Below the pieces are notes generated by a model. The model ran no database searches and was not told where the DNA came from. It was given only the letters and a program-made list of their open reading frames with translations. Shown one piece after another: positions 1 to 64,000 of a DNA stretch of 64,000 nucleotides; positions within the stretch are counted from its first letter, which is position 1; each line of letters opens with the position of its first letter. The translations under genes and the position numbers were made by a program. The DNA comes from Methanobacteriota archaeon (GTDB lineage: Archaea; Thermoplasmatota; Thermoplasmata; SG8-5; JACRNV01). The stretch covers positions 67,445 through 131,444 of the forward strand of contig JACRNV010000028.1 of the NCBI GenBank assembly GCA_016214785.1, given 5' to 3'.

Positions 1-26
1 CATTCAATATCAGGGGGGAGTACGGC

Positions 27-407: not shown

Positions 408-494
408 TATCCATTCCGCCGCCTGCGGTTCAGGCGCATCCCCTCCCAGAAAACAATATTAGAGTAGAAGCCTATGCACGGGCGGTGCGCGGCA

Positions 495-1598: not shown

Positions 1599-1602
1599 GC
1601 AA

Positions 1603-2061: not shown

Positions 2062-2168
2062 CCGAAAGCGCCTGAAATGCATCCATTATGTTCTTGTCAG
2101 AGTATTCGCCCCTCGACATACCGTAATGCAAACTATAATTATTGTGTTTCCAATAAGGCTCCGAGCGC

Positions 2169-14804: not shown

Positions 14805-14891
14805 AAAAATATATATTTCTCCTTTACATCTAATACATGTGATTCACATGTGAAAGAGGGGTTTAAATCCGCGGAAGGCCATTTTCGTGGC

Positions 14892-38086: not shown

Positions 38087-38869
38087 TCAGAAAATTTGTG
38101 ACCATGCCCGGAGAGCCATTGACGCAAGTCCTGCTGGCAATGCAGGGACGTTCTTCATCACAACCGCGCCCAAGCCTATGAACGCATTGTTGCCTACGAC
38201 GACGTAGTCCCTTATCGAGCTGTTCGGGGAAATCCAGACGCCATCACCTATCTTCGCACTCCCGGCGATTATGGTTCCCGCAGTGATGATGCAGTTCTTT
38301 CCGATTGTGACATTGTGCCCGATGTGGCAGTAGTGGTCTATCTTCGTGCACCGCCCGACCCTTGTGTTCCCGAGTGTCCCCCTGTCTATGTTCGTGAACG
38401 GAAAGACCTCCACGTAGTCACCGAGAACCACGCCCCCGTAGTGCGGGAAATTCTCTAACATCCCCTTCTCGTTTTCAATATGCCCGAGTCCCTCATATCC
38501 GATCAGGCAATATGGATAGACAATCACATTCCTCCCTATAGTCACATTGTCGTTTATCAATACGTTCGAATGAATTATCGTGTTGGCCTTTATTTTACAT
38601 TTCCCAATCGAGCAGTTGGGCCCGATATATACGCTCGGGTGTATGTCCGCTCCGTCACTGACCACCGAGGTGGGATGAATACCTCCCCTCTTCACCTCCC
38701 GCGGGAAGCATCTCTTTAATATTCTTAAAAAGGCCAACTGGGGGTTCTCCACGACTACGAATGCCTTTTTAGTAGCGTTTGGGCTTTTAACGCCCGTCTT
38801 TTTATTAACCAGTATCACCGAAGCCTTTGAATTGTTGACGATTTTTGTCGAGTTTTGTATCCTTTCCAT
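38087..38869 (-). CDS. left-handed beta-helix (hexapeptide-repeat) sugar N-acyltransferase, LpxD/PglD-like
   Basis: Tandem hexapeptide repeats (IGPNCSIG, VTIGRNVIV, VTIGKNCIITAGTIIAG, IGDGVWISPNSSI) after an N-terminal nucleotide-sugar-binding-like region. Confidence 0.7.
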   Translation of the reverse strand: MERIQNSTKIVNNSKASVILVNKKTGVKSPNATKKAFVVVENPQLAFLRILKRCFPREVKRGGIHPTSVVSDGADIHPSVYIGPNCSIGKCKIKANTIIHSNVLINDNVTIGRNVIVYPYCLIGYEGLGHIENEKGMLENFPHYGGVVLGDYVEVFPFTNIDRGTLGNTRVGRCTKIDHYCHIGHNVTIGKNCIITAGTIIAGSAKIGDGVWISPNSSIRDYVVVGNNAFIGLGAVVMKNVPALPAGLASMALRAWSQIF

Positions 38870-39000
38870 AGCGCAGAAAGAGATGGCCCCGCTCTTTCCC
38901 TCCCATATCGTAGAAGGGAACGAAAAGGTTGTGTCAGGGCTGCCTATTATCTCGTATCCCTTAATCTTCAGCTCCGCCAGGACTTTTCCTATCCGGTATT

Positions 39001-39783
39001 TTATAACCCATCCCTCCTGATGATGCTTAGCGTCTCGAAGTAGTCGTGCAGCAGTGTCTCCGACATTCGCGACGTATATGCAACGATGGTGTCCACGTAA
39101 TCTCCCCCCCCCTCCAGGAATTGCTCGGGGTGAAGCGATATCTGGACCGGGAATTTTTTTATGCCCTTGATGAATTCATAAGGTTCTTTGCCCCTATACG
39201 GATGCAGGAAGGGATCTATGCGCATTGAATCGCTGAGGTAACGCTCGTCTGAGAAAATCTCCTTCGCGTATGCGTTGAGGTATCCATCAAACATCGGGTA
39301 GTCCCCATGGACGGAGGGATTGTGCAATGCGATAGAGGTTATCGGCGCACCTATGACTCTCTCTAGGATCGCGCATTCGTCCCGGACGGCTTGATCGAGT
39401 CTGGCTTTGGACACATTTCCGTATATCGAGGGATCGAAATGCAGCCCTATCTCGAATCCGTCGCCGGACATCTCCCTCAGCATCCGTCTCAGCCGTGCGG
39501 ACTGCGGATTGTATGTATGGGACGTGGTGAGCACGAAGAATGTCGAGCGGATGCCTAGCTTTTTCTGTATCTTTGTGAATTTATCTGACGGGTAAAGGTC
39601 GAGGTCCACATCCTGCCTGAGGAGGATACACCTTCCATTGTGCTTTTTGCAGTCCCTCAGGGGCACGACTGGCGCGACATCCATGGTGCACCGGAGGAAT
39701 CTTTCGAGTTCGTCGAACGAAAATTTTACCCCCCATGCATCCTTTTGCGGCGTCTTTCTCATCGTTGCACGACCATCCTGCAT
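39001..39783 (-). CDS. putative carbohydrate esterase / polysaccharide deacetylase-like protein
   Basis: Weak NodB-like features (DVDLD, HTY, LHNPSVHGD); sits between the N-acyltransferase and glycosyltransferase genes; assignment uncertain. Confidence 0.35.
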   Translation of the reverse strand: MQDGRATMRKTPQKDAWGVKFSFDELERFLRCTMDVAPVVPLRDCKKHNGRCILLRQDVDLDLYPSDKFTKIQKKLGIRSTFFVLTTSHTYNPQSARLRRMLREMSGDGFEIGLHFDPSIYGNVSKARLDQAVRDECAILERVIGAPITSIALHNPSVHGDYPMFDGYLNAYAKEIFSDERYLSDSMRIDPFLHPYRGKEPYEFIKGIKKFPVQISLHPEQFLEGGGDYVDTIVAYTSRMSETLLHDYFETLSIIRRDGL

Positions 39784-39812
39784 TTCTACAGCCTCCTATG
39801 GACTCAGGATAT

Positions 39813-40931
39813 TTATGGCTTTCTGCATATGGCCATTTTCCCGTAAATCCGCTCGAACTCGCCCATGTTCTTCTCCCAATCGCCTATCCTGAGAGCGAGC
39901 TCCCTGCTCGCCTTTCCGAAACGCTGTCTCGCCTCGGCATCTGCGGCCAGTCCCAGCATCTTCACAGCAAGGTCCCTCGGTTTGTCAGCATCGAATATAT
40001 ACCCATTGACGCCGTTTTGGACAGCCTCCTCTATACCGTGCCTGCTAGCCAAGAGGACTGGTAGGCCAGTGCTCAATGCCTCCATAACACTGGCGCCTAT
40101 CCCTATTCCGGCTTTATCGATGTGCACAGTGTCTAAATATATGTCCGAGCTTGAAAGGTATTTTGGCACCTCGTCGTGAGGAATCTTCCCAGTGAACATC
40201 AGCATGTCTTCTACCCCGGTTTCGGTAGCTAGCGCGTCCAGCCTCTCCTTTTCTGGACCTCCGCCGATTATTACGATCTTCATATCATTTCTCGCAGCCT
40301 TTATATGCGGAATCGATTCGATGAGAGCTGGAATGCCCCATGTGGGGACGAGCGATGCCACCATCGTGACGATGACCCCGTCTTCCCTGCCCAGCAGCTT
40401 GCGCCTAAGGTCATCGGAGCGCGCCGAAGGCGAGAAGCGTCGGGTGTCGACGCCCCATGGCTGGACAAAGGTCTTCTCGGGGGGGCAGCCGAGCTCGATC
40501 AGCCTGGCCTTTCCAGCACAGTCGCCGGTGTGGACGAGGTCTGATCCCCGTATGACATCTTTCGTGATCCCCCCCACGATCGAATCGTCCTTTACCCACG
40601 CAATATCGCTGCCCCAAGCGCTGACGATGAAAGGGCGGGCCCCGGACTTCAATCCCCAGTACCCGTACGAGAAGATGAAATGCGCATGCAAGATATCGGG
40701 CGTCATTTCCCGGATCAGCTTCTTAGATTGCCTTATTCTGATATAGAGATTGACTGCTCTCGCCAGGATATTCGGCTTTCCGATGTTCTCCTTGACAGGG
40801 TGTAAGGCGACCCCCTCGATCTTCGCGGGCTTGTCGGTGATGACGTGCACCTCGTGCCCCCTCTGGGCGAATGACCGGGCCCACCTCTGCAGGTGGATCG
40901 ACTGTGCGTCCCCTATATAGCAGATTCTCAT
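39813..40931 (-). CDS. GT4-family glycosyltransferase (GT-B fold)
   Basis: N-terminal sugar-acceptor domain, C-terminal Glycos_transf_1-like block with E-x7-E-like region (GIEEAVQNGVNGYIFD); start at the ATG 40931. Confidence 0.8.
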   Translation of the reverse strand: MRICYIGDAQSIHLQRWARSFAQRGHEVHVITDKPAKIEGVALHPVKENIGKPNILARAVNLYIRIRQSKKLIREMTPDILHAHFIFSYGYWGLKSGARPFIVSAWGSDIAWVKDDSIVGGITKDVIRGSDLVHTGDCAGKARLIELGCPPEKTFVQPWGVDTRRFSPSARSDDLRRKLLGREDGVIVTMVASLVPTWGIPALIESIPHIKAARNDMKIVIIGGGPEKERLDALATETGVEDMLMFTGKIPHDEVPKYLSSSDIYLDTVHIDKAGIGIGASVMEALSTGLPVLLASRHGIEEAVQNGVNGYIFDADKPRDLAVKMLGLAADAEARQRFGKASRELALRIGDWEKNMGEFERIYGKMAICRKP

Positions 40932-41050
40932 CGTGCGCTCTCCGGCGGTTACGAGTATGCGGGCATGGTATATAAACATCCCCGCCCCACGCTTGACGCA
41001 CCCCCACCTTTCAAATACTAGCTTTCAGATACGCGCACGAGGCGTTCACA

Positions 41051-49908: not shown

Positions 49909-51105
49909 ATGGCTGACGAAGGCGAAAAGAAAAAAGGAGGCTTCTTCTCGTTCGGCAGGAAGAAGGGGGGCGCCCCCGAGAAGCTGTCGCGCGCGGAGGT
50001 CAAGAAGCGCCTGGTCGAGCGACGGGCGACGCTTGACGAGCGCGAGCAGATGCTCGCCCTATTGGAGACGCAGCTCGACGGGCAGAACCGAGCCAACGAG
50101 CGCAGGGACAGCGAGCTCAACGAGAAGAGGGAGGCGCTAGACGGCCGCGCGAAGGAGCTGGACGAGCGAGCCTCGTACCTCGACGAGAAGGAGAAGGGCA
50201 TGGCCGCCGAGCGCGCGGAGTTCGCCTCCATCCAGGAGCAGTTCAAGCAGAAGGTGCAGGCTATACGGGAGCTGAAGGCCGAGGCCGAGCGCCAGTCCGC
50301 GGAGGCCAAGGCGGCGATGGACGACCTGGAGAGCCGCAAGGCGGAGATAGACGCCAAGGCCGCGGCCCTGGACGCCAGGAGCGCGGAGCTGGAATCGCTC
50401 GCGGCGGACCTGGACAGGAAGTCCGACTTGCTCGACAAGAGGAAGGCGGCCATCGAGAGCCAGGCGGGGGACTTCGACCTGAAGATGGAAGCCCTGACCA
50501 ACCGCGAGAACGGCCTCACGGAGGAGAGGACGCGCCTGGAAGCCATCCAGAGGGAGCTGGAGGAGGCTGAAAAGGCCCTAGAGGCGCGCCGCTCGGAGGT
50601 CGGCCAGATGCAGGAGCAGCTCCAGGCCAAAGCCCAGGCCATCAGGGAGATCAAGGACGAGGTCGAGCGCAGGCGCGCGGAGAACCAGGACGAGGCCAGG
50701 GACCTCGAGAAGATGAGGTCGGATCTCGACGAGCTGAAGGATCAGCTGGACGCCCGGGACAAGGGGCTCGACGAGAAGGCCGCGAAGATGATGGAGAAGG
50801 AGGGGTTCCTCGCGGAGCTGGAGGAGAAGGTCGGGCTATGGCGGAAGCGCCTGGAGTCGAAGGAGAACGAGCTGGCGGCCAGGCAGGCCGCGCTGACGAA
50901 CAGGGAGCTGGAGATCAAGAGCAAGGAGGCCGAGATGGACGGCGTCAAGCACAACCTCGCGCAGAAGGTCGAGGGCCTCAAGGACATCGAGACCAGGGTC
51001 CTCCAGAGGAAGCGCGACGTCGACAAGATAGAGCTCAAGCTTATAGAGAAGGAGACGGAGCTCTTCGACCGCGAGCAGGTCGTGACGAGAAGGGAAGGAA
51101 AATAG
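49909..51105 (+). CDS. coiled-coil protein, paralog of the 4010-6430 repeat region; N-terminal basic amphipathic segment
   Basis: 398 aa; N-terminus KKKGGFFSFGRKKGGAPEKL then continuous charged heptad repeats with the same register and composition as 4010-6430. Confidence 0.65.
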   Translation: MADEGEKKKGGFFSFGRKKGGAPEKLSRAEVKKRLVERRATLDEREQMLALLETQLDGQNRANERRDSELNEKREALDGRAKELDERASYLDEKEKGMAAERAEFASIQEQFKQKVQAIRELKAEAERQSAEAKAAMDDLESRKAEIDAKAAALDARSAELESLAADLDRKSDLLDKRKAAIESQAGDFDLKMEALTNRENGLTEERTRLEAIQRELEEAEKALEARRSEVGQMQEQLQAKAQAIREIKDEVERRRAENQDEARDLEKMRSDLDELKDQLDARDKGLDEKAAKMMEKEGFLAELEEKVGLWRKRLESKENELAARQAALTNRELEIKSKEAEMDGVKHNLAQKVEGLKDIETRVLQRKRDVDKIELKLIEKETELFDREQVVTRREGK

Positions 51106-51152
51106 CCGGACGGGACTCAAGAGATTTATGCAGGACAAATGGAGCAAAAAGC

Positions 51153-51974
51153 ATGAATAGTCCTAATTATGTTAAGCCAAACTTTCCGGCCAATGCGTTC
51201 AAAGGTACCGCCTTATACTATAGTCGGTATCGCATCCCCTATCCTGATGCCCTTATTGAAGATCTCATCAGTAGAGTTGGGATAAAAGATGGTGATAGAC
51301 TTCTGGATCTGGCATCCGGGCCAGGACGCCTTGCAATCCCGCTCTCAGCCTCCTTCTCTGAGGTTGTGGCGAATGACCTGGAGCCAGAGATGATTGATGA
51401 GGGAATGAAAGAAGCGGACAAGCAAGGAGCCACCAATATCCGATGGGTCATTGGAAAATCTGAGGAATTGAAGGAAGAACCAGTGTCATTTAAATTGATT
51501 ACGATAGGGGAAGCGTTTCATCGGCTTGATCAATTGGTTGTGTCAAGGCAAGCACTTAGGCTGCTTGTTCCGGGTGGCTGCCTGGCCGTAATTGGCTGTT
51601 ACGGAATTACTGAAGGAACGGAACCGTGGCAACGCATAGTGGCGGAAACGGTTCAGAAATGGACAGAACAGGCCTCCCCCATACGAAAGATGGAGCCAAA
51701 GCCGGGCAGCGGTCCTAAGCACAACAGGTTAGTTCTTCAGGATGCGGGATTCGTGAATATCGAAGCCTACTCTTTTACGAAAGAACACACATGGACTGTC
51801 GAATCAATCCTTGGTTACCTATTCTCGACTTCGCAATGTTCTAAGAACGCGCTGGGCGCATACAGTGAGGATTTTGCGCTTGATTTACGAAACCAGCTTC
51901 TGAATTTCGATTCTAAGGAACAATACAGAGCAAATATGGATTGTGGCTATACAATCGGAAGGAAGCCGAAATAA
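51153..51974 (+). CDS. class I SAM-dependent methyltransferase
   Basis: SAM-binding motif I LLDLASGPGRLAIPL and acidic motif II (VVANDLEPEM); lower-GC gene. Confidence 0.65.
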   Translation: MNSPNYVKPNFPANAFKGTALYYSRYRIPYPDALIEDLISRVGIKDGDRLLDLASGPGRLAIPLSASFSEVVANDLEPEMIDEGMKEADKQGATNIRWVIGKSEELKEEPVSFKLITIGEAFHRLDQLVVSRQALRLLVPGGCLAVIGCYGITEGTEPWQRIVAETVQKWTEQASPIRKMEPKPGSGPKHNRLVLQDAGFVNIEAYSFTKEHTWTVESILGYLFSTSQCSKNALGAYSEDFALDLRNQLLNFDSKEQYRANMDCGYTIGRKPK

Positions 51975-53556: not shown

Positions 53557-54497
53557 ATGCTCGCATGAGTGATGTCGAACCTCTTGTCAAGGACATCGTT
53601 TATCTTCGCGAGGATGCCGCCGCAGTCGCTGAGCTTGCAATCGGGGACGACGACATGCGCAGTCATCGAGTACATCTTCGACGTTATCTCCCAGACGTGG
53701 ACGTCGTGGACTTCCCTAATCTCGCTCGCGCATCCCTTGATGGCGGCGGCGACGTCAGCTACCTTGATGTGCGCGGGGGCCGACTCTAGCAGTATCCTAA
53801 TGGAGTCCCGGAATATCCCCGCAGCCCAGACGAGAATCACTGCGCATATCACGATGCTGAGTATCGGGTCGATGATGACCCATCCGGTGTAGTGGATGGC
53901 GATCGCCCCTATCACTACGGCGACAGACGAGACGGTGTCCCCGAGCATATGGACGTAGGCGCTCCTCACGTTCAGGTCGTCCCGCTCGGCGCCCATCAAT
54001 ATTCCCGCGGTTATGAGGTTCACGGCCAGCCCAGCGGCGGCGACTATCAGCATCTCGGTCTCCGCGATCGGTGCCGGGGACAATATCCTCTGGTATGCCT
54101 CGTTGAGAAGGAATATCGTGATCATAACGAGAGTAATGGCATTGATGAAAGCCGCAAGGACCTCTACCCTGTAGAGCCCGAAGCTCTTCTCCCTCGCGGT
54201 CGCCCTGCATGCCAGCCTGATGGCCGCATAGCTCAGGGCGAGGGCGAGGAAGTGCGTGAACATGTGCCCGGCGTCGCTGAGGAGCGCGAGGCTGTTGCTC
54301 AGCCAGCCGCCAATAATCTCAGCAACCATCATGGCAGCGGTCAGCCCGATGGCCAGTGCCAGCCTCCGGCGGCTCAGCGCCCTGTGCGTGCGGGCATGGT
54401 CGTGATGGCCCTCGCCGTGATCGTGCCCGTCCGGGCACCCATTTGCATGCTTTGGCGCGTGAGCGTGCTTCATCGCGGCGCGAACCATCCGCTCCAT
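53538..54497 (-). CDS. cation diffusion facilitator family transporter (CzcD/ZitB-like)
   Basis: His-rich N-terminus (GHDHGEGHHDH), CDF signature region with HxxxD pairs (SDAGHMFTH; HMLGDTVSS), C-terminal cytoplasmic domain. Confidence 0.85.
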   Translation of the reverse strand: MERMVRAAMKHAHAPKHANGCPDGHDHGEGHHDHARTHRALSRRRLALAIGLTAAMMVAEIIGGWLSNSLALLSDAGHMFTHFLALALSYAAIRLACRATAREKSFGLYRVEVLAAFINAITLVMITIFLLNEAYQRILSPAPIAETEMLIVAAAGLAVNLITAGILMGAERDDLNVRSAYVHMLGDTVSSVAVVIGAIAIHYTGWVIIDPILSIVICAVILVWAAGIFRDSIRILLESAPAHIKVADVAAAIKGCASEIREVHDVHVWEITSKMYSMTAHVVVPDCKLSDCGGILAKINDVLDKRFDITHASIQFECG

Positions 54498-54575
54498 GCG
54501 TAAAAATCTTTCCCAGGCAATTAAGAAACATAATCGAAAAAAAGTTATAGGCAGGCGGCTTCTGGCATCCCTGCC

Positions 54576-55934
54576 ATGAAGCGCAAGATCGTTGTCGTTG
54601 GAATGGGCTATGTCGGCATCCCGGCCGCGGCTCTCTTCGCCGACGTCCCGGGGTTCGACGTCACTGGCGTGCAGCGCAGATCGAAGCGCTCCGGATGGAA
54701 GATTGACTGGCTCAACAAGGGCAAGAACCCCATAGGCGGGGACGAGCCCGGCCTCTCCGAGCTCATAGCCCGCGTCGTCAGGAAGAAGTCATTCAGGGTC
54801 TCCGAGAAAATCTCGGTCGTAAAGGACGCGGAAGCCATCCTCATAGACGTCCAGACGCCGACCGAGGCCGACAGGAAGCCGCGCTACGAGTCGCTCAAGG
54901 AGGTGAGCGCCGAGATCGGCAGGCACCTCCGCAAGGGGACGCTTGTAGTAATCGAGTCAACGGTCGCGCCGGGCACGACCGAGTACATCGTCAGGCCCAT
55001 TCTTGAGAGAGCCTCCAAGATGAAGGCCGGCAGGGACTTCTTCCTCGCGTTCTCCTACGAGCGCGTGATGGTCGGGCGCCTCATCAACAACATCGTCAAC
55101 CTGCCGAGGATAGTTGGCGGCATAAATGCAGAGAGCACGAGGCGCGCCGTCGAGCTCTACCGCCACGTCGTCAAGTCCTCGCTCCATCCTACCGACGCGC
55201 TGACCGCCGAGGTCGCCAAGGTCGTCGAGAACACGTACAGGGACGTGAACATCGCCTTCGCGAACGAGGTCGCGCTGATATGCGAGAGCCTCGGCGTGAA
55301 CGTCTACGACGTGCGCGAGTTCGTCAACACGCTCCCGAACGACCCGAGGAACCCGGTGTCCAACCCGGTCAGGAACATGCACTTCCCCGGCGCTGGCGTG
55401 GGCGGCCACTGCCTCCCCAAGGACCCGTGGCTGCTGAAGTACGGCGTGGACACCTACGGCAAGTTCAAGGTCGAGCCCGAGATAATCATCGGCAGCAGGC
55501 TCCTGAACGACATGATGCCGTCTCACGTCGCCGACCTGCTGGAAGCGGCCCTGAAAGAGCATGGCAGGGAGCTCATCAGCGCGAAGATAGCGATACTGGG
55601 CGTGGCCTTCCTGGAGAACTCCGACGACACGCGCAACACGCCTTCGGCCACGCTGTACGAGGAGCTGAAAAGGCGCGGGGCCAAGCCGGTGATGCACGAC
55701 CCGATAGTGCGCGAGTACGAGCTGCCGTTCACAAAGGACCTGGAAGGGACGCTGCGCGGCGCGGACGCTGTTATACTCTCGACCAAGCACAAGGAGTACC
55801 TCAAGCTAGACCTGAGGAAGCTGGCCAAGAAGCTCAGGACGCCAATCCTCATCGACGGCAGGAACGCCTTTAGCGCTGAGAAGGCGAAGAAGGCCGGGCT
55901 TACATACAGGGGCATAGGGAAGGGAAGGCGTTGA
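54576..55934 (+). CDS. nucleotide-sugar dehydrogenase (UDP-N-acetyl-D-mannosamine / UDP-glucose 6-dehydrogenase family)
   Basis: N-terminal Rossmann GMGYVGIP, catalytic Cys region GAGVGGHCLPKDP, UDP-binding C-terminal domain. Confidence 0.85.
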   Translation: MKRKIVVVGMGYVGIPAAALFADVPGFDVTGVQRRSKRSGWKIDWLNKGKNPIGGDEPGLSELIARVVRKKSFRVSEKISVVKDAEAILIDVQTPTEADRKPRYESLKEVSAEIGRHLRKGTLVVIESTVAPGTTEYIVRPILERASKMKAGRDFFLAFSYERVMVGRLINNIVNLPRIVGGINAESTRRAVELYRHVVKSSLHPTDALTAEVAKVVENTYRDVNIAFANEVALICESLGVNVYDVREFVNTLPNDPRNPVSNPVRNMHFPGAGVGGHCLPKDPWLLKYGVDTYGKFKVEPEIIIGSRLLNDMMPSHVADLLEAALKEHGRELISAKIAILGVAFLENSDDTRNTPSATLYEELKRRGAKPVMHDPIVREYELPFTKDLEGTLRGADAVILSTKHKEYLKLDLRKLAKKLRTPILIDGRNAFSAEKAKKAGLTYRGIGKGRR

Positions 55935-55985
55935 GTTCCCACTGGGATTCCTTGTTTTTTTGTCAGGACATTTTTCGGCAGCTCC

Positions 55986-56342
55986 CTACTTCATCACAGC
56001 GATTGCGTCGATCTCGACCAGCCCGCCCTTCGGGAGCGCCGCGACGCCGACGGTCGTGCGCGCCGGGTACGGCTCCGAGAAGAAGCTGGCGTACGTCTTG
56101 TTCATCTCGTCGAAATCATCCATGCTCTTCAGGTAGACCGTCGTCTTGGCGACGTCCTTCGTAGTCGCGCCCATCTCCCCCAGGACGGCGGCGAGGTTCT
56201 TCAGGGCCTGCCTCGTCTGCTCCGCTATCCCCCCGGCGAGCTTCCCGGTCGCGGGGTCGAGCCCGAGCTGGCCGGAGATGAAAATAATGTCCCTAAATTT
56301 GACGGCGCGCGAGTAAGGGCCGATGGCCTTTGGCGCAGGCAT
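55986..56342 (-). CDS. ridA: RidA/YjgF-family reactive-intermediate deaminase
   Basis: PAPKAIGPYSRAV...FISGQLGLDP...ARTTVGVAALPKGGLVEIDAIA is the canonical RidA pattern; 118 aa. Confidence 0.8.
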   Translation of the reverse strand: MPAPKAIGPYSRAVKFRDIIFISGQLGLDPATGKLAGGIAEQTRQALKNLAAVLGEMGATTKDVAKTTVYLKSMDDFDEMNKTYASFFSEPYPARTTVGVAALPKGGLVEIDAIAVMK

Positions 56343-56350
56343 CTCCCGCC

Positions 56351-56713
56351 TCAGAGGTACCGGTCTATGCGCTCGATGCAGGCCTGGGCGAGGTGGTCGT
56401 CGGGGTTGGCCTTCAGGACCTCGCAGAAATGGTTCCTCGCGTCCTGGATGATGTCGTCCTGCTGGGTCTTCTTTCCAATCTTGTAGAGGGAGTCCCCCTT
56501 GAATGTGAGTATGACGTTCTTCAACAGGGGGTCGTGGACAATCTCCAGCGCCGCGTTGCAGTACTGGACCGCCCTGCCGTGCCTGTGCTCGGCGCGCAGG
56601 TGCGCTATCTTCCTGAGGTACGATTCCACTTCCTTGTCCATCACCCTGTCGGTCATGCCTATCAAACTGACATATGCGCAAACCCCTAATAACCTTTTCG
56701 ACGCCTTCGCCAC
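56351..56713 (-). CDS. hypothetical helical protein (possible TPR-like)
   Basis: ORF immediately upstream of ridA on the same strand; no strong motifs; start uncertain (internal ATG at 56656). Confidence 0.35.
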   Translation of the reverse strand: MAKASKRLLGVCAYVSLIGMTDRVMDKEVESYLRKIAHLRAEHRHGRAVQYCNAALEIVHDPLLKNVILTFKGDSLYKIGKKTQQDDIIQDARNHFCEVLKANPDDHLAQACIERIDRYL

Positions 56714-57079
56714 CAGGCGGTAGGAGGCCTCGGCGGGGTCGAATCAGAGCTTGTGCTTTTAAACCACTTCCCCTGTACTGCACGGGAGAATATGGTAGGG
56801 AAAATCGGACATGTTTTCCTCCCGCTTTTGGGGGGTGAACCATGAGCGCGTTTAAGCGATTCACCCCAGCGGAGAAAGCGGAGATCATGTTGCTTGACTT
56901 AGTGTCCACTATGCGGGGTGCAGTCCAAGATGCACTCATCGCTGGATGGGAAGTTCCGGAGGCGGTACACCATGCAGAGGCGTAGAAAGAGTTTTATCAG
57001 GGAAAAGCCTCTCATGTTCTATGGAACGGCACAGTTAAAATACAAGGAAAGTAAAAGGGAAGGGTTTTCGTAGAGCTGT

Positions 57080-59134
57080 TTAGTTCACCGTTACGCTCGT
57101 CAGATAGCTGCTCGTCCCGCCATCGTCGTCCATCACTGTCAGCGTTACGGTGTAGGTTCCAGATGCATTGTAGGAGTGGGATGTCGCGTCGTCAGCCGTG
57201 AACGGGTACGTTCCCCAGGGGCTCGGGTAGGGATCCGGGCTTACTCCGTTGTTGTAATAGATGCTGGACACTGTTGGTGTGCTGTCTCCGAAGTCCCAGG
57301 TGAAGGTCAGGTCGTCGCTGCCAGGGTCAGTGGCAGTAGCCTTGAATGTCAGGGCTTTTCCGCTCGTGGTCAGAAGGCTATTCAGGTCCACAGCGTAGCT
57401 CTGATGATAGGTGGACGGGTCTTTCGGTTTGGTCACGAAGGTCGTGATCTTCGCCATCTTTCCGTCGATTATAAACCACACCGGGTTCGCACCGTGGCCG
57501 TTGGCCGATGAATCGTAGTAGAGCGTTGCAGTGTAAGGTTTGGTGAGGTCTATGTTGGCATAGAGAGTGGCTTCGTTCGGTTGGCCTGATGTTCTGGTTA
57601 CCTCTACCGAGCCTATCACAGAGTCTTCTTGCTCGATGACCAATGTCACTATGTTGCCCGGAGTGCCTGCCACCCTTAGCGTGATCTCTGCGGGGAAGTA
57701 GATGCCTTTCATCTCTGCTGTCGGCGCGACATTGTTCACTGTCACGATGCACGTGTCGGTGCCGGTGAGGCCCTCCACATCCGTTACTGTCAGCGTCACT
57801 GTGTAAACACCGTTGTCCCCATAGACATGGGTCGGCGTAGCGCCGGTTCCAGTCGCTCCGTCGCCGAAATCCCACGAATAGGTCAGCTCGTAGCCCGGAG
57901 CCGGGTGCGCATTGGTCCACTGCCAGAGGAATCTGGGCCCGCCGATTGTTGTGAACACATACAAACCGCTTTCGCTCGCCGCGGCAAAGTAATCGCCCTT
58001 GTAGTCCATTGAGACTTCCCATATACCGCCTCCAGTGGTATATGTGTACAATGGCGTGCCACTGCTCGTGTCGAACAGGTATACATTGTGGTCCCAGCAT
58101 CCGCCAACTATGTAGCGCGCATCAAGTGCCATGTCTATGGTTTCGCCATAGGTGGATAAGGTGTAGCTCCACACAAACGAAGGAGTATCTGTCCTGAGCA
58201 AGCGGAAGGCATTTACGCTTCCAAATGGATAATATTGTGCTTCTGCGATATATATTCCATCGTCTGACATTGCAATCTCGGCGACTGTTCCACTTACAGG
58301 GTATGTTCTGATTAAATTGCCATTGCGGTTATAGAGACTAACTGTATTTTGTGCTCCCTGGCCACTTGCGACATAGGAAGCGTTGTAAGACAAGGCGGTC
58401 GCATAGTGAGGATCGCCGATGGTTGACGTCCAATAAAGGGTCCCGGTAGAAACGTCATACAACCTTAGCTGCCACATCCATGAGCCGGCAACGACATAGT
58501 TTCCATCGCCTGAGAAACGCACTGACCTGACATCTGCGGGATATGAATAGGTCCACATAAGACTCCCGTTTTTATTAAACATATAAATGTCTCCGGTAGT
58601 TGTATATGGAGTTCCGGTTCCTACAGCAATATGCTCGCCGTCCCTGCTGATGTCCAATGATTCCCTTGGTGTGGTGGCAATCGGATAGGTCGTGGTATGT
58701 GTCCACAACGGCGTTGAACTGCTTGTATCGAACAATGCAACATGATTGGTATATCCCACGGCCAGATATTGTCCGCTATCAGACAGCGCCGCAGCCTCAA
58801 CCTCAGACCCGGTGTCATATGTCCATTGCGGGACTGGGGAGTTTGTCTTGAAAAGCGTCACGTTTGTGCCCCAACCAATCGCAATATATTGCCCATTGCC
58901 AGACACATCAACAATCCTTATCGGCTCAACGATTATAGGCGCATCCGGATCGTAAGACCCAGTGCCGTCGAAGTGTACGGTATCGCCTTCGTTTACAGTC
59001 TGGTCTGGACCTGCATTTGCCACGGGCGGAACTCCCAACGCATTTGCGCTCATAGGTACTAGCATGCCCAGCAGCATGACCATTGCCACAGCGCATGCAA
59101 GTCCGCTCACACTTTTTCTATTTTCTTTATTCAT
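57080..59134 (-). CDS. secreted PKD-domain / beta-propeller repeat surface protein
   Basis: Signal peptide (VAMVMLLGMLVPMSANA); two PKD-like modules (WDFGDGATGTGATPTHVYGDNGVYTVTLTVTD; WDFGDSTP...YNASGTYTVTLTVMDDDGG); multiple YVTN/PQQ-like propeller repeats (LWTHTT, LYWTSTI, LYTYTTGG). Confidence 0.7.
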   Translation of the reverse strand: MNKENRKSVSGLACAVAMVMLLGMLVPMSANALGVPPVANAGPDQTVNEGDTVHFDGTGSYDPDAPIIVEPIRIVDVSGNGQYIAIGWGTNVTLFKTNSPVPQWTYDTGSEVEAAALSDSGQYLAVGYTNHVALFDTSSSTPLWTHTTTYPIATTPRESLDISRDGEHIAVGTGTPYTTTGDIYMFNKNGSLMWTYSYPADVRSVRFSGDGNYVVAGSWMWQLRLYDVSTGTLYWTSTIGDPHYATALSYNASYVASGQGAQNTVSLYNRNGNLIRTYPVSGTVAEIAMSDDGIYIAEAQYYPFGSVNAFRLLRTDTPSFVWSYTLSTYGETIDMALDARYIVGGCWDHNVYLFDTSSGTPLYTYTTGGGIWEVSMDYKGDYFAAASESGLYVFTTIGGPRFLWQWTNAHPAPGYELTYSWDFGDGATGTGATPTHVYGDNGVYTVTLTVTDVEGLTGTDTCIVTVNNVAPTAEMKGIYFPAEITLRVAGTPGNIVTLVIEQEDSVIGSVEVTRTSGQPNEATLYANIDLTKPYTATLYYDSSANGHGANPVWFIIDGKMAKITTFVTKPKDPSTYHQSYAVDLNSLLTTSGKALTFKATATDPGSDDLTFTWDFGDSTPTVSSIYYNNGVSPDPYPSPWGTYPFTADDATSHSYNASGTYTVTLTVMDDDGGTSSYLTSVTVN

Positions 59135-59630
59135 CCTCTTTACCCCCTTACCCTCCTCCGCATTAGTATTCTTTACTTGAGAGGGTATAGATAAATAGTG
59201 ATGCGAGTAGAAATAAATTCCTAACAATTTGTAGCATGTTGAAAAATGAGTGCTCCCCACCATAAATGGTGGGGAGCACTCATTAACGAGAAAATACTTG
59301 AAAAGGGTCATTTGTTGGTTATGTGAAATCAATTATTTTTTAACATTATCTATCCTCTGAATGAGTAAATTTTGCTTCTATTTGAGGATTCAGAATTCAA
59401 TTCCAAATTTTTTGTTTATTTATCAATCTTTTCGGAGGTGGCAAGTAGAGCCTCAGTCGTAAGGTTTCTTGGGCTATAGGGAAAAGCCGTAATAGTCGAC
59501 ATATAAAAGGTAAGAATATCGGAATAATACTTGCAATTGGGGTCCCTCCCATAAAAATTTCCGCGAGTGCGATTGGCATTGCGCAAGCATCAGCCTGGCT
59601 TCAAGGAAACATGCGTCTGATAGCAGTAAC

Positions 59631-59870
59631 ATGGTGATGTTGAGGTGCCCTATAATGTCAAAAAAAGATTGGTTATGGACAATAATACTTGCATTATGCT
59701 TGGTCGGGGTTGGAGGATTCCTACCACTTGCCATTGGAGGTGGATATAACCTACTTTTTTCTACAAGTAACAACATATCTTTTGATATTATTGTTTTTCT
59801 AATAGTTGTGGTAGTATGCATAATATTAACGATTGTTTCATTGTACTGCTTGCGAAAAAATTGGAGATGA
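59631..59870 (+). CDS. small membrane protein (2 TM) in low-GC island
   Basis: 79-aa hydrophobic ORF upstream of the Rhs-CT gene; codon usage AT-rich relative to the host. Confidence 0.35.
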   Translation: MVMLRCPIMSKKDWLWTIILALCLVGVGGFLPLAIGGGYNLLFSTSNNISFDIIVFLIVVVVCIILTIVSLYCLRKNWR

Positions 59871-59915
59871 TGACCGAAAGAATTAAACAAACAAAATCGC
59901 ATATGCGATAGGAAG

Positions 59916-60872
59916 GTGGCAAACCGAATGCACGCAGGAGGTGAGTACTGGGTCGAAGCGGACAACGGAAACGTATCGGTCAGCGTGAGCCTGTTTTTCG
60001 AATGCAAATCAGAGGTTCAGTATTTTAGACTGCCGCCGAACGGCGACAGAATAGAGAGAGCCAACGACACCGGAACCACATACTACCTCTACGACCGGGA
60101 GGATGTCATCGCCATCCTGAACGAAACAGGTGCACCGGTCAAGGAGTTCCTGCACGGAATTGGAATCGATGAGCCGGTGGCGATGAAGATTGGAGCGAAC
60201 ATCTACTATTACGCTCAGGACGGCCTGGGCAGTACTGTCGCACTGATAAACGCGGCAGATGGTAACGTAGTTGCTGCCTACAGATATGATGCGTGGGGCA
60301 CACTCCAGAACTATACTGGAACCATCGCAACCAAGAACCCATACCTATTCACCGGCAGAGAGTACGACTGGCAGACTGGGATATACTATTACAGAGCACG
60401 AAGTTATGATGCGAACCTTGGGCGATTCCTCCAACGCGACCCCAATGGGATGGTCGATGGGACGAATATGTATGTGTATGTTGGGAATGATCCTATGAAC
60501 AGGGTTGACCCAAGTGGGAAAGGATGCGGTTGGAACTGGGGATGTATAAACTGTATGTTCTGGTGTGGATTAGCTAGTGTCGTTGGCATTGGCATTATTG
60601 GGGGGATACTTGCGGCGGCCGTGGGTGGAGGCGTACTTGGCGCCATTACAGCAGGCATTGTTGCTCTAATGTTGGCTCCGACTTTGTACCTAGCGTGTTG
60701 TAATAAATGTGGAGCAATTCCATCAATCCCAGGAGGAGTTCTACCTATTATATCAGCAGCTTTAGCCTTAACATGCGCAGTAGTAGGGACAATATCTATT
60801 ATTGCCCGGTTAGTATGTATTGTATCTGTCGGTGTCTTTTTCTCACTGATAAGAATACTGCTAGGAATATAG
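59916..60872 (+). CDS. orphan Rhs/YD-repeat C-terminal core fused to a glycine-zipper hydrophobic toxin-like domain
   Basis: YD repeats (TYYLYD, AAYRYDAWG) and the Rhs core terminus KNPYLFTGREYDWQTGIYYYRARSYDANLGRFLQRDPNGMVDGTNMYVYVGNDPMNRVDPSG (YDxxTGLYYxRxRxYDPxxGRFxxxDP...DPxG); then a 125-aa Cys/Gly-rich membrane segment with GxxxG arrays (GIGIIGGILAAAVGGGVLGAITAGIVALM). Confidence 0.75.
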   Translation: MANRMHAGGEYWVEADNGNVSVSVSLFFECKSEVQYFRLPPNGDRIERANDTGTTYYLYDREDVIAILNETGAPVKEFLHGIGIDEPVAMKIGANIYYYAQDGLGSTVALINAADGNVVAAYRYDAWGTLQNYTGTIATKNPYLFTGREYDWQTGIYYYRARSYDANLGRFLQRDPNGMVDGTNMYVYVGNDPMNRVDPSGKGCGWNWGCINCMFWCGLASVVGIGIIGGILAAAVGGGVLGAITAGIVALMLAPTLYLACCNKCGAIPSIPGGVLPIISAALALTCAVVGTISIIARLVCIVSVGVFFSLIRILLGI

Positions 60873-60884
60873 GGAGGAACAAAT

Positions 60885-61136
60885 TTGTTTTATTTTTTTT
60901 ATGTATTTCTTATAATTTTAAATACCATTGCTTTAATATCATTATGCTATGATAAGGACCGATTAAACAATAAGAAAAAATGGCTTTGTGGATTTGTTTT
61001 CATCCTGATATGTCTGTTAATCGCCTGGATACTTTTACCTTCTGATTACATTGAGGTGACTTCTGTGGCCTTTATAATTATGGCAACAACTTCATTTTAC
61101 ACACTTCACAGATTTGGTTTATTATCTAAACCATGA
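60885..61136 (+). CDS. putative immunity protein (small 2-TM membrane protein) for the Rhs-CT toxin
   Basis: 83-aa hydrophobic ORF starting 13 nt after the Rhs-CT stop, same strand, very low GC; position and size typical of polymorphic-toxin immunity genes. Confidence 0.4.
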   Translation: MFYFFYVFLIILNTIALISLCYDKDRLNNKKKWLCGFVFILICLLIAWILLPSDYIEVTSVAFIIMATTSFYTLHRFGLLSKP

Positions 61137-61172
61137 GGTTGTATTGCACAGGAAAATATGGAAGGGAATCCC

Positions 61173-61445
61173 TCACAGGCAATACTCTTTTTTCAACGCA
61201 TCTATATGGAGCGAATAATTCTTATCTTTCGAAGCAACCATCTCTTCCAGCAATCTTTTAGCCTTGTCTCGATGGCGCTCACTAACAGGATACTGGCTTA
61301 CCAAACTCTGCATCTCCTCGACAGCTACTTCTTTGTATTTCCAACCGTCTGGTAAATACGATTGATAATGCGCATACCAATTCTGCTGCATTGAGTAAAA
61401 TGTCTTCGAGTCGAGACCAAGAACACTGTTGTATGGTTTTAACAA
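61173..61445 (-). CDS. hypothetical small protein (low-GC island)
   Basis: 90-aa ORF, AT-rich, no motifs. Confidence 0.3.
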   Translation of the reverse strand: MLKPYNSVLGLDSKTFYSMQQNWYAHYQSYLPDGWKYKEVAVEEMQSLVSQYPVSERHRDKAKRLLEEMVASKDKNYSLHIDALKKEYCL

Positions 61446-62031
61446 TCCTTTTACTCACGTTTATTATCACCAGTTATATTTTAAATGTAATTTTTTTTAG
61501 AATATATCCCATTAAATCATGTTAAGTATATTGCATTATTGTTTTTTTACCATCCGACGGCAGCCCTAATCGCCTGAGCCAGGGTACGCAATTCCCATTT
61601 ATCGTATTTTGCCCCTCCAGGTGTCCGCGCTCTCCATTACAAAATATCGTAAATGGTCGGGCTGCATCCAGCCAGATGACCTGGCTCCCCATTCGTAGAG
61701 TCGGCTGCATTTTTTCTCTCATTTCTCTTTTTTCCTTCTTTCACACTGACAATACACCGTTAAACACGGTGTAGTCAATGGCTATCATAATCGACGCCTC
61801 CAGGATCGGGCTGGGGGAGCGGCAGGCATCCCGACGCAACAGGAACAAGTACGCCGACGAAAAGGACTAGCAGGTCATTGACAGCCTCGATGAAGAAATC
61901 GAGGCCGGGCTGTGGTCGTACAGGGTCAAGCGTCCGTTACTCCAGTTTCAATCTTATAATTGCCTACTACAGCCTCGTAGAACCCGGCGCCGAAACCTTT
62001 ATTCCCTGAAGGGCATCCACCCCTTGATAAC

Positions 62032-62529
62032 ATGGGCAGCGCTGACGAGGACATACGCGAGGGCGAGCGGTTGCTGAACGAGTTCGATTACAAGGGCGCG
62101 CTCGCGCGGTTCGACAAGGCCGTCAAGAACGCCCCTAACGACCCGCGCGGGTACTTCGGCAAGGCCGAGGCCGCCATGGGGGAGCAGAAGGCCTCCGTCG
62201 ACCAGATCCTCGAATGGTACAGGAAGGCCGTCGACCTTGACAAGAAGAACGTCTTCTACCTCACGACCCTCGGGAGCTTCTGCGTCGAGGTCGGCAAGTT
62301 CAACGAGGCCGAGGAGTTCTACAACAGGGCCACGGAGATTGACGAGGAGAGCGCGCCGCTTTACTACTCGGAGTTCGCCATAGGATACTACATGCGCGCC
62401 CCGATAATCTACGAGAAGTTCCTTGACGACAAGACGATGACCATGATAAAGAAGAAGACGCTCGAGTACCTGCTGAAGGCCATGGACACCACGCCCGCGC
62501 AGGCCAAGCAGCTCATTGACGCGAAATAA
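62032..62529 (+). CDS. tetratricopeptide-repeat protein
   Basis: 3-4 TPR-like helical hairpins (YKGALARFDKAVKNAPNDPRGYFGKAEA; FYLTTLGSFCVEVGKFNEAEEFYNRATEID). Confidence 0.65.
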   Translation: MGSADEDIREGERLLNEFDYKGALARFDKAVKNAPNDPRGYFGKAEAAMGEQKASVDQILEWYRKAVDLDKKNVFYLTTLGSFCVEVGKFNEAEEFYNRATEIDEESAPLYYSEFAIGYYMRAPIIYEKFLDDKTMTMIKKKTLEYLLKAMDTTPAQAKQLIDAK

Positions 62530-62558
62530 GGATAAGGTAAGGGTTTTGGCGCGCCATC

Positions 62559-63494
62559 TTATGGGCTAGTATTGTTCGCGTTGAGGTTAATCAGAGGCGT
62601 GATGCCGCTCTCCGGGAGGATGACGAACTGGATGTTGCTGTTCGGGTCGGTGAGCGCCCGGATGTAGAGCCACCGGAGGTATATCTGCGAGGCCTCCGTC
62701 TCGTTCGTAATGTTGAACTGGTGCATAATGATCTGGATGGCCTCTGCCTTCGCCGTCGCGTCGATGATGGTGACGTTGGCCGCCGCGCTCGCGTTGACGA
62801 TCGTCTGGGTCGCCACGAACGACTGCGCCTGCAGGTTGTAGCCCTGGGTGATGACGTTTTGCTCCGCGACCTTCTTGGCGGTTATGGCGTCCTCGTATTG
62901 CTGCGGGAGCGATATCTCCTGCAGGGCGAACTCCTCCATGACTATGTGCTTCTGCAGGAACTTCGTCGAGATGTTGCTCTGTATGGCCAGCGCCACCGCC
63001 GACCTGTTGTCCCCGCGGATGTCCAGCGCCTCGAAGTTCGCGCAGACGTCCCTGGGCACCGAGCGGCATATCGGGACTACGACCGTCTCCCTGAAATTGC
63101 CGTTCTCGACCCTTATCTGGCCGACCTTCGTCGGGTCGAGATGGTAGACGACCTGAAAGTCTATGGTTATCGCGACGTTGTCCTTGCTGTTCACGACCAG
63201 GTTCCCGACGTTGTCGTCGGCGTACGTCTCGCCTATGAACTTCTCGGACTGCGTGTTGTACCTTAACAGCTCGACGCCCTGCAGGGGGTTCTTCCACTGC
63301 CAGCCCTCGTCGTACACCTTTCCCACGTCGAACCCGTTCACGACCACGGCCTTGTGGCCGGCGGGCACGTTTATCAGCGACATCGCCAGGAGCGCGACTG
63401 GCACGATGACGATCGCTATTATCAGCACCACGATTATCAGCGGCCTCGCCCCGCTCATCAGGCTCAGTTCCCCGTCTTTCTTCATCGCGGTCAT
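62559..63494 (-). CDS. SPFH/band-7 (stomatin/prohibitin-like) membrane protein
   Basis: N-terminal TM helix followed by an SPFH domain (AVVVNGFDVGKVYDEGWQWKNP...) and a C-terminal coiled/Q-rich region. Confidence 0.8.
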   Translation of the reverse strand: MTAMKKDGELSLMSGARPLIIVVLIIAIVIVPVALLAMSLINVPAGHKAVVVNGFDVGKVYDEGWQWKNPLQGVELLRYNTQSEKFIGETYADDNVGNLVVNSKDNVAITIDFQVVYHLDPTKVGQIRVENGNFRETVVVPICRSVPRDVCANFEALDIRGDNRSAVALAIQSNISTKFLQKHIVMEEFALQEISLPQQYEDAITAKKVAEQNVITQGYNLQAQSFVATQTIVNASAAANVTIIDATAKAEAIQIIMHQFNITNETEASQIYLRWLYIRALTDPNSNIQFVILPESGITPLINLNANNTSP

Positions 63495-63561
63495 TTGACC
63501 ACCCGGGAGATGATTGCGCCCCGCTCTCTTAAACGTATGCAGGGACTGCCCAGGGAACACC

Positions 63562-64000
63562 CTAGCGAAGGCGGGCGACGAGCGCTGGGTCTACGTTCCC
63601 GCCTGATAAGACTACCCCGATTCTCTTTCCCCGGAAGCTGGACTCCCTTTCAATAAGGGCGCCTAGCGGCACCGCGCCCGACGGCTCGACGACGAGCTTC
63701 ATCCTTTGGAATAGGTGCCTCATTGCCTCGATAATCCCTCCTTCCGAAACAATGGCGATTCCGGCAACGTTGCTCCGTATGATCTCAAAGGTGAGAGGGC
63801 TCAGCGAAGTGAGGAGGCCGTCGGCGATGGTCTTCGGGTTCGTCTGCGGTATAAGCATCCCCTCCTTCAGCGAGCGGAAGGCGTCGTCGGCGCCTTCCGG
63901 CTCCGCGCCCCAGGATTTAACTCCATTTGAGAAGTATTTCGCGCTCAGGGACGTGCCGCTGAGTAATCCACCACCGCCAACCGGGGCTATGACCATGTCC
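63562..64000 (-). CDS. PLP-dependent fold-type II enzyme, threonine/serine dehydratase-like (3' part; gene continues beyond window)
   Basis: Gly-loop VIAPVGGGGLLSG and C-terminal region typical of threonine ammonia-lyase/serine dehydratase family; N-terminus outside the window. Confidence 0.6.
   Translation of the reverse strand, partial: DMVIAPVGGGGLLSGTSLSAKYFSNGVKSWGAEPEGADDAFRSLKEGMLIPQTNPKTIADGLLTSLSPLTFEIIRSNVAGIAIVSEGGIIEAMRHLFQRMKLVVEPSGAVPLGALIERESSFRGKRIGVVLSGGNVDPALVARLR

Follow-up and report, generated by a model that had tools for sequence, protein, structure and literature searches.

A putative orphan Rhs toxin-tip and immunity cassette in a low-GC island of a Thermoplasmatota archaeon

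Introduction

What place does the 3′ end of an Rhs toxin gene have in an archaeal genome when no Rhs shell precedes it? The question is raised by a low-GC segment towards the end of a 64,000-nucleotide (nt) stretch of contig JACRNV010000028.1 (positions 67,445–131,444, forward strand; assembly GCA_016214785.1, Thermoplasmatota), called the window throughout. The segment holds, in this order, a small open reading frame (ORF) with transmembrane (TM) segments (ORF79), an ORF in which the last YD repeats and core of an Rhs protein are joined to a new hydrophobic tip (the Rhs ORF), and another small TM ORF (ORF83). We consider it probable that this locus is a dissociated orphan Rhs toxin-tip/immunity cassette of the type to which C-terminal displacement or lateral transfer gives rise. 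Public records already include the gene and place it in its family, since the Rhs ORF is identical (100%) to NCBI entry MBI5000832.1, a 314-amino-acid (aa) protein of a metagenome-assembled genome (MAG) named 'RHS repeat-associated core domain-containing protein [Euryarchaeota archaeon]'. What is new here is only the sequence of the tip and possibly ORF83; the underlying concepts are established.

Results

An Rhs core with its processing motif

The Rhs ORF is uninterrupted from either of two candidate starts (GTG 59916 or ATG 59928) to its stop at 60872, and its 314-codon frame is unbroken across DNA of 45% GC. A preliminary description of the locus, made from the sequence alone, had recognized an Rhs core terminus ahead of a DPxG site, and profile searches agree: TIGR03696 (Rhs_assc_core) scored 80.8 bits, above its 32.5-bit cutoff (E = 7.6e-23), over residues 120–197 of the 314-aa form (124–201 of the 318-aa form). 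The other profile it had suggested, Pfam RHS_repeat, was silent at E ≤ 0.1 in a local Pfam copy; the precomputed database annotation of the identical protein is PF25023 (TEN_YD-shell). A phmmer search of the PDB returned 25 chains of Rhs/Tc/teneurin type, mosquito SGS, TcdB2-TccC3, RhsA, Tse15 and Tse5 among them, with RhsP (8h8b) as the best (E = 1.6e-16). All of these matches fall at the C-terminal end of the target's Rhs core and stop at, or a few residues from, the DPSG of the query.

Structure prediction gave a concordant picture. In an AlphaFold2 model built with 49 relatives, residues 30–170 form confident β-hairpins, with a predicted local distance difference test (pLDDT) score of 76–97, and core segment 174–206 scored below 50. 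All significant Foldseek matches in the PDB (37/37) were Rhs, teneurin or Tc proteins, of whose shells about 15% was covered (TMt 0.15).

The closest core relatives are from Thermoplasmatota. The most informative comparison is with a 2102-aa Rhs protein of Thermoplasmatota MAG244 (JBFMEL010000054.1; locus L001): residues 37–198 of the Rhs ORF, spanning the last YD repeats and the core, are 80% identical in aa and 74% in nt to its residues 1828–1989, and the homology begins at residue 37 and stops at DPSG. With TIGR03696 and the PDB chains, this places Rhs matches across residues of about 40 to 195, the region on which the original assignment had been staked. A degenerate YD repeat makes up the first 36 residues (GGEYWVEADNGNVSVSVS...); it resembles the N-termini of two short Rhs proteins, P0003 and P0004, as well as the matching repeat of the full-length Rhs. 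The ORF therefore begins within shell sequence, as had been proposed, and it has the ATG of its own that had also been claimed, with a Shine–Dalgarno (SD)-like AAGGTGG 8 nt 5′ of this start at 59928. Its N-terminus, MHAGGEYWVEADNG, contains no hydrophobic signal segment.

The processing motif reads DPNG-x19-DPSG and contains D171 and D194 (314-aa numbering), 23 residues apart. This spacing is 23 in the L001 Rhs as well and 22 in RhsP (8h8a); the spacer is one residue longer than in the published Rhs aspartyl-protease signature, DPXG-X18-DPXG (PMC10684867). Aligned to D194, RhsP has Asp in structure 8h8a, which represents the state after autoproteolysis, and Ala in 8h8b, which represents the state before it; the 8h8a chain ends one residue past the Gly aligned to the DPSG of the window. 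By analogy, cleavage here would fall after DPSGK. Both predicted catalytic Asp residues and 11/11 invariant positions of the family are kept. Taken at the level of sequence, these findings support assignment of the gene as a 3′ fragment of rhs, comprising the last three to four YD repeats, the Rhs-associated core and a variable tip.

Absence of a shell in the window

The YD part of the Rhs ORF amounts to only about 160 aa of β-hairpins, against roughly 700–1000 aa or more for a complete shell. N-terminal of the core, no match to a DUF6531 plug or to a secretion or trafficking domain was obtained with Pfam or NCBIfam. When the 2102-aa archaeal Rhs was searched against the 64-kb window by tblastn, 60036–60521 was the sole significant match, and no second rhs was found in the 59 kb upstream or the 3 kb downstream of the cassette. 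The statement that no N-terminal Rhs shell is encoded upstream thus stands for the window, and the single tblastn match leaves no complete in-frame shell there. The ORF is accordingly a fragment of an Rhs and not a complete toxin, because the core and protease motif are present and the shell, plug and secretion domain are not. It agrees with the definition of an orphan, a 5′-truncated rhs fragment with core homology, except in its location, which is not downstream of a full-length rhs.

Protein homologues returned by database searches reached about 1.75 times the query length (547 aa for the 318-aa query and 1577 aa for a 901-aa query). The lack of long Rhs proteins among those matches is no evidence of their absence, because the 2102-aa L001 Rhs, 80% identical over 162 residues, was missed. 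With 901 aa of the L001 shell as the protein query, the matches listed were 27–36% identical and 1122–1577 aa long.

A variable tip rich in cysteine and glycine

Following DPSG, the ORF continues in frame into a tip that contains no Asp or Glu, 9 Cys, 19 Gly, 18 Ile and 15 Ala; four of the nine Cys lie within CGWNWGCINCMFWC. The tip has about four hydrophobic segments, and AlphaFold2 models helices of 17–26 residues at 207–232, 236–260, 271–287 and 291–312 (60546–60623, 60633–60707, 60738–60788 and 60798–60863 on the DNA) with pLDDT 56–70. Its open length exceeds that of composition-matched shuffles (p ~0.009). The preliminary description had seen here a 125-aa Cys/Gly-rich hydrophobic tail with stacked GxxxG motifs forming a glycine zipper. 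Composition and hydrophobicity were as described, and the length after DPSG is 117 aa. The zipper did not survive scrutiny: GxxxG occurs three times, and there is a single strict glycine-zipper motif (AAVGGGVLG), whereas shuffles average 1.5 and have at least as many in 66% of cases. Small-xxx-small pairs are mildly enriched (19 versus 13 ± 2.5 in shuffles).

As far as sequence comparison goes, no relative carries a tip related to this one. Searches of Pfam and NCBIfam at E ≤ 1 gave nothing beyond one meaningless Pfam line (E = 0.56), the halocin C8 model TIGR04449 (24-bit cutoff) had no match to it at E ≤ 1, and scans of JGI metagenomes and IMG/VR, tip-specific peptide patterns included, yielded no further locus. 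Aligned by MAFFT with five tips from relatives that are likewise Cys-rich and hydrophobic, it seemed to share a common layout with them, C...C / hydrophobic hairpin / CG-x-[IV]-P-x-x-P; kinship with these five is unproven, hhalign aligning 16 columns at a probability of 4.5%.

Small flanking genes

ORF83, a candidate cognate immunity gene, was described earlier as an 83-aa ORF with two TM segments that starts 13 nt after the Rhs stop. The ORF is there; the gap is 12 nt, the hydrophobic segments number two to three and the start codon is TTG, with GGGAGGA 6 nt upstream. Chance alone would give a shorter open frame (p ~0.009, composition shuffles), and the same is true of ORF79 (p = 0.002), whose alternative ATG at 59655 is preceded by GAGGTG at 6 nt. 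SD-like motifs thus precede all three ORFs of the cassette. The position of ORF79, a candidate orphan immunity gene, is that taken in arrays (L004, below) by the immunity gene of the preceding toxin; here the preceding toxin is absent.

Of the further hydrophobic ORFs that had been suggested nearby, ORF79, with two TM segments, stood up, and 61173–61445 cannot be one, because it is on the minus strand and hydrophilic by its grand average of hydropathy (GRAVY). Another minus-strand ORF, 61522–61722, encodes 66 hydrophilic aa in a frame not beyond chance (p ~0.18). Neither of these two had a family match in Pfam or PHROGs.

Related loci

The 2102-aa Rhs of L001 combines 14 RHS repeats with a DUF6531 plug and an N-terminus that resembles a signal peptide, and is followed by a gene for a 221-aa TM protein (GC 0.35) and then by a 267-aa orphan Rhs-CT (C-terminal) gene. 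Locus L004 contains an array, with 4-nt overlaps between genes, of an Rhs-CT fragment, a 107-aa TM ORF, a 354-aa short Rhs (P0004), a 64-aa two-TM ORF and a 46-codon core remnant. Many more intact Rhs-CT genes of 250–350 codons are found in Thermoplasmatota; one, in L005, follows an aminotransferase gene. Of the five related loci with downstream sequence, four have small, very AT-rich membrane-protein ORFs 3′ of the toxin genes; the exception is L006, where a gene for a 414-aa β-propeller protein is next. The candidate immunity role of ORF83 draws on its equivalent position to those in L001, L002 and L004. Small TM ORFs from one locus showed no similarity to those from another, which is uninformative because it is expected of polymorphic immunity genes.

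Relatives that are 43–78% identical in the core carry tips unrelated to one another, so the tip position is polymorphic. Among the 35 closest proteins, tips are 76–160 aa long, mostly with 4–16 Cys and often hydrophobic. The clearest case of exchange is found just 3′ of serS in distinct Thermoplasmata genomes, where a short Rhs gene is present in L002/L007 (10013–10951) and in L006 (5548–6471). Flanks are 80% nt identical between these loci, and the Rhs N-terminal part and core 89%; the tips and the next genes are unrelated, a halocin C8 domain and a 117-aa TM ORF in L002/L007 versus another Cys-rich tip and the β-propeller gene in L006. The halocin C8 domain is bona fide (TIGR04449, 46.5 bits, E = 5.4e-12) and belongs to P0028, which is 53% identical to the Rhs ORF in its N-terminal part and core. 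The serS locus is a case of C-terminal displacement in a stand-alone gene without a shell.

The L004 array (1–3600) adjoins a TPR gene that is orthologous (54% identity) to the TPR gene flanking the cassette at 62032–62529 in the window. It lies on the opposite side of this gene from the window cassette, and the remaining synteny differs; the shared neighbour may reflect a common variable region or coincidence.

Composition and contiguity of the island

The cassette is compositionally foreign to its flanks. GC content is 0.59–0.65 in the flanks and 0.34–0.51 across about 59000 to 61750, in keeping with the AT-rich segment noted earlier. GC at third codon positions (GC3) is 0.87–0.92 in housekeeping genes, 0.61 in the Rhs N-terminal part and core, 0.33 in the tip, 0.28 in ORF83 and 0.33 in ORF79, and total GC reveals the same mosaic of core versus tip and immunity genes in L001 and L002. 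A GC-richer core with an AT-rich extension is said to have been described by Hill et al. in 1994 as the classic Rhs pattern. As for marks of a mobile element, there was no tRNA gene in the window and no direct repeat flanking the island, and within the island the small ORFs had no PHROG match and no Rfam family scored above threshold.

In an independent Logan assembly of SRR12113407, contigs are 100% identical to the window over 54496–59271 and 61838–64000 and stop at the edges of the cassette. A graph break, poor coverage or polymorphism between strains could account for these stops; a chimeric join is the least likely cause.

The left contig end falls within a perfect 19-nt inverted repeat with a 2-nt spacer (40 bp; 59245–59284), unique in the window (0.01 expected) and situated in the AT-rich divergent intergenic region between ORF79 and the PKD/β-propeller gene described below. 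As RNA, this palindrome has a folding energy of −37 kcal/mol (z = −9.3), a U-run follows it on the minus strand, and it overlaps a sub-threshold Rfam match to archaeal sRNA41 (E = 0.39). A terminator, an operator and a recombination site are all conceivable roles.

Table 1 Coordinates of the cassette and its parts in the window
Feature	Position	Strand	Description
Compositional island with cassette	59272..61837	.	Defined by GC/GC3 and Logan contig ends
ORF79, candidate orphan immunity gene	59631..59870	+	79 aa, or 71 aa from ATG 59655; 2 TM; GC 0.35
Orphan Rhs C-terminal ORF (predicted)	59928..60872	+	314 aa from ATG; 318 aa from GTG 59916; without signal peptide or shell
Block homologous to last YD repeats and core of full-length archaeal Rhs	60036..60521	+	tblastn; presumed recombination handle
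Rhs-associated core (TIGR03696)	60285..60518	+	Holds aspartyl-protease motif DPNG (60438–60449)-x19-DPSG (60507–60518)
Variable tip, Cys/Gly-rich	60519..60869	+	117 aa; follows DPSG; four modelled hydrophobic helices; no homologue found
ORF83, candidate cognate immunity gene	60885..61136	+	83 aa; TTG start; 2–3 TM segments; GC 0.29
ORF in island, convergent with ORF83	61173..61445	−	90 aa; hydrophilic, GRAVY −0.75; coding status uncertain, open frame marginally beyond chance length (p ~0.03)

Discussion

Alternative explanations for the locus

Several findings weigh against a dissociated toxin-tip/immunity cassette. The locus is not 3′ of a main rhs, unlike textbook orphan arrays, and its recombination partner is hypothetical because no full-length rhs is present in the window, which covers 64 kb of the 196,588-bp contig. 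The tip gave 0 matches at E ≤ 1e-3 when searched by phmmer against 1.84 billion cluster representatives (of which MBI5000832.1 is evidently not one, because the protein itself was not recovered), and retrieved only itself among 240 Rhs relatives (local phmmer --max, HMMER filters off). Since it has no homologue, the case for a membrane toxin draws on its composition and on a model of medium confidence. ORF83 depends on a TTG start and had no homologue in a database of 5.8 billion proteins, where its own sequence is absent too, so it has apparently never been called as a gene; moreover, hydrophobic peptides arise easily by chance from T-rich, AT-rich DNA, a caveat that extends to ORF79. Finally, the Rhs ORF has an ATG and SD-like motif of its own, and relatives keep short, stand-alone Rhs genes at non-rhs loci, which also fits autonomy. 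An autonomous gene is possible, if unlikely: by analogy with ProC8, which gives HalI and halocin C8, the 314-aa product might be a self-processing precursor whose YD/core part of about 200 aa acts as leader, chaperone and autoprotease and which releases a 116–117-aa hydrophobic, Cys-rich, archaeocin-like peptide, with ORF83 providing immunity. In favour of this are, besides the start, the number of intact genes of similar size in Thermoplasmatota, some of which stand alone by housekeeping genes (serS in L002/L007 and L006; an aminotransferase gene in L005), and the translational coupling of the L004 short Rhs to its neighbours. Diversification does happen at a shell-less locus, because at serS the core is conserved while the tip and the next gene are swapped, and the P0028 tip belongs to a family, halocin C8, that is cleaved from a larger precursor (bioRxiv 10.64898/2026.07.27.741052). 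Against it, the sequence contains neither a signal peptide nor another export signal; the N-terminal homology is all to ordinary terminal YD repeats, with no dedicated leader; in solved Rhs/Tc structures the core protease is a plug in a closed shell, whereas here about 15% of the shell is present and segment 174–206 is poorly modelled; and look-alike bacterial orphans are seen as a delivery-deficient recombination reservoir (PMC8125069). The wider proposal that Thermoplasmatota have turned the last YD repeats and core into a shell-less precursor that cleaves itself at DPxG to yield small Cys-rich hydrophobic peptides, those of the halocin C8 type and the four-helix tip of the window included, is more doubtful still.

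The lack of a shell, plug, secretion signal and nearby main rhs would also suit a functionless, decaying relic of an rhs locus that was lost or never acquired, one that has simply not yet been disrupted. The tip and ORF83 are sequence singletons, as a relic's might be, and decay does occur in such loci, because the L004 array holds a 46-codon core remnant. We nevertheless regard this as improbable: the 314-codon frame (45% GC) and the 83-codon frame (29% GC) are both intact and beyond chance length, and both catalytic Asp, the 11/11 invariant positions and the SD-like motifs are kept. Four TM-length helices at the extreme C-terminus and the failure to recognize a catalytic domain in the tip could instead mean that the tail is no toxin and anchors a small protein of the surface or membrane, but such an anchor is very hard to reconcile with a tail that directly follows the DPxG site, the toxin position in all characterized Rhs (PMC10684867), with the hypervariability of this position in close relatives, one of which carries a known archaeocin domain there, and with the immunity-like ORF that comes next. 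An assembly artefact, in which an AT-rich cassette of another population was mis-joined to a high-GC contig, seems the most remote of all. The Logan contigs bracket the cassette exactly, ending at 59271 and resuming at 61838; the compositional jump is extreme; and exact look-up of the cassette proteins (the Rhs ORF in three start variants, ORF83 and ORF79) and of the PKD protein came back empty while the flanking genes were found. Yet the left break lies inside a 40-bp palindrome able by itself to break de Bruijn contigs, in related Thermoplasmatota loci the tip and immunity genes are likewise low in GC and run on directly into flanks of higher GC, the nearest core relatives are themselves from Thermoplasmatota, and the L004 Rhs array sits beside an orthologue of the very TPR gene that flanks the cassette.

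A possible mode of action

If the locus is a dissociated toxin-tip/immunity cassette, its productive form would be the tip joined, through the conserved block of about 490 bp, to a full-length Sec-exported Rhs such as the 2102-aa L001 protein. There the D171/D194 aspartyl protease would sever the tip after DPSG(K), and the YD cocoon would hold it unfolded. Upon delivery, its four hydrophobic helices may enter the cytoplasmic membrane of a competitor and dissipate the potential, as Tse5-CT does in bacteria, and ORF83, a predicted integral membrane protein, would neutralize the tip within the bilayer of the producer. In the present genome, the cassette is most likely a silent or weakly expressed reservoir that could be re-attached through the same core block, and probably also a carrier of candidate immunity genes, ORF83 and ORF79, against neighbours with matching toxins.

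Comparison with known systems

In Salmonella and E. coli, orphan rhs-CT/rhsI modules result from C-terminal displacement. Bacterial orphan modules share with the window a 5′-truncated rhs with a stretch of core, a small gene downstream (an immunity gene there, a candidate here) and AT-rich DNA across tip and immunity gene. Textbook orphans form arrays directly 3′ of a full-length rhs, in contrast to the isolated window cassette with no rhs in 64 kb, and the host here is an archaeon with no known type VI secretion system (T6SS) context. In the bee-gut bacteria Snodgrassella and Gilliamella, orphan rhs-CT and immunity modules are interpreted as a recombination reservoir and/or as defence, and bacterial orphans of this look are taken to be missing the N-terminal secretion domain that delivery requires (PMC8125069).

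For the tip, the system to compare is Tse5 (RhsP1, PA2684) of Pseudomonas aeruginosa. Tse5-CT is an Rhs-encapsulated pore-former that depolarizes membranes, its cleavage by the core protease is essential, and its immunity protein, Tsi5, is a two-TM membrane protein (PMC9637101, PMC10684867). Both Tse5 and the window ORF have a DPxG...DPxG core ahead of a helical C-terminal domain, which in Tse5 is roughly 120–150 aa long, non-enzymatic and membrane-inserting; the window tip is predicted to resemble it in these respects and, by analogy, may form pores too. Like Tsi5, ORF83 would be a small TM protein encoded beside the toxin, as befits its candidate immunity role. The likeness is not one of tip sequence, because the match to Tse5 (8cp6_B, E = 1.5e-6) is confined to core residues 137–197 of the query. 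Full-length Tse5 also has a PAAR-like N-terminus, a DUF6531 plug and a complete shell and is delivered by the T6SS, whereas the window ORF has none of these parts and an archaeal host. The L001 Rhs is nearer in the core: it has the same DPxG-x19-DPSG motif and high identity over residues 37–198, and an AT-rich membrane-protein ORF is next to it. Its own tip is a soluble-looking Cys/Trp-rich domain unrelated to that of the window.

Halocin C8 (ProC8) provides another parallel, as a Cys-framed, Gly-rich hydrophobic peptide from the C-terminus of its precursor. The window tip is longer, with four predicted TM-length helices and no TIGR04449 match, and halocin C8 precursors, unlike the window ORF, are exported by the Tat pathway and have an immunity domain at the N-terminus. 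According to the account in bioRxiv 10.64898/2026.07.27.741052, archaeal polymorphic toxins, YD/RHS–halocin C8 fusions included, were catalogued by Makarova et al. 2019. The suggestion in the preliminary description that a membrane-attacking tip with a membrane-protein immunity partner would be a new antagonism module cannot be upheld, as Tse5/Tsi5 (PMC9637101, PMC10684867) and the orphan modules (PMC8125069) precede it. The window cassette reveals no new principle.

Should the tip prove toxic, it would add to the polymorphic-toxin repertoire a new sequence-orphan membrane-active domain together with the membrane protein that confers immunity to it, and archaea would have their counterpart of Tse5/Tsi5. 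Were the Rhs ORF instead an autonomous precursor, the Rhs and archaeocin worlds would merge, with neither a cocoon nor a dedicated secretion machine. The comparison set itself brings to light an uncultured Thermoplasmatota lineage with a full-length, apparently Sec-exported Rhs and many short Rhs-CT genes, whose tips are predominantly small, Cys-rich and hydrophobic, one of them halocin C8, and are exchanged at conserved loci. Such tip exchange, together with exported Rhs, makes contact- or secretion-dependent antagonism in archaea experimentally approachable.

Other genes of the window

Divergent from the cassette, on the minus strand at 57080–59134, lies the gene for a 684-aa predicted secreted protein with a signal-peptide-like N-terminus, a WD40/PQQ-type β-propeller and four PKD domains. 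Its GC3 of 0.585 makes it compositionally foreign as well. A place for this protein in the Rhs system was considered and rejected, blastp against the 240 Rhs proteins giving no match at E ≤ 1e-3; its similarity to the β-propeller protein beside the short Rhs of L006 is generic only (26% identity, E = 3.7e-4).

Farther away, 14850–19304 on the plus strand encodes a 1484-aa protein of the alpha-2-macroglobulin family with MG2, bait region, A2M, TED and receptor-binding domains. Three other patches of lower GC are found in the window: a cluster of hexapeptide acyltransferase, unknown and GT4 glycosyltransferase genes at 38087–40979 (minus strand; GC3 0.63–0.68), a 174-aa ORF with no Pfam match at 11280–11804 (plus strand; GC3 0.31) and a methyltransferase gene at 50838–51974 (plus strand; GC3 0.42). 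They look like variable surface-glycan or accessory genes.

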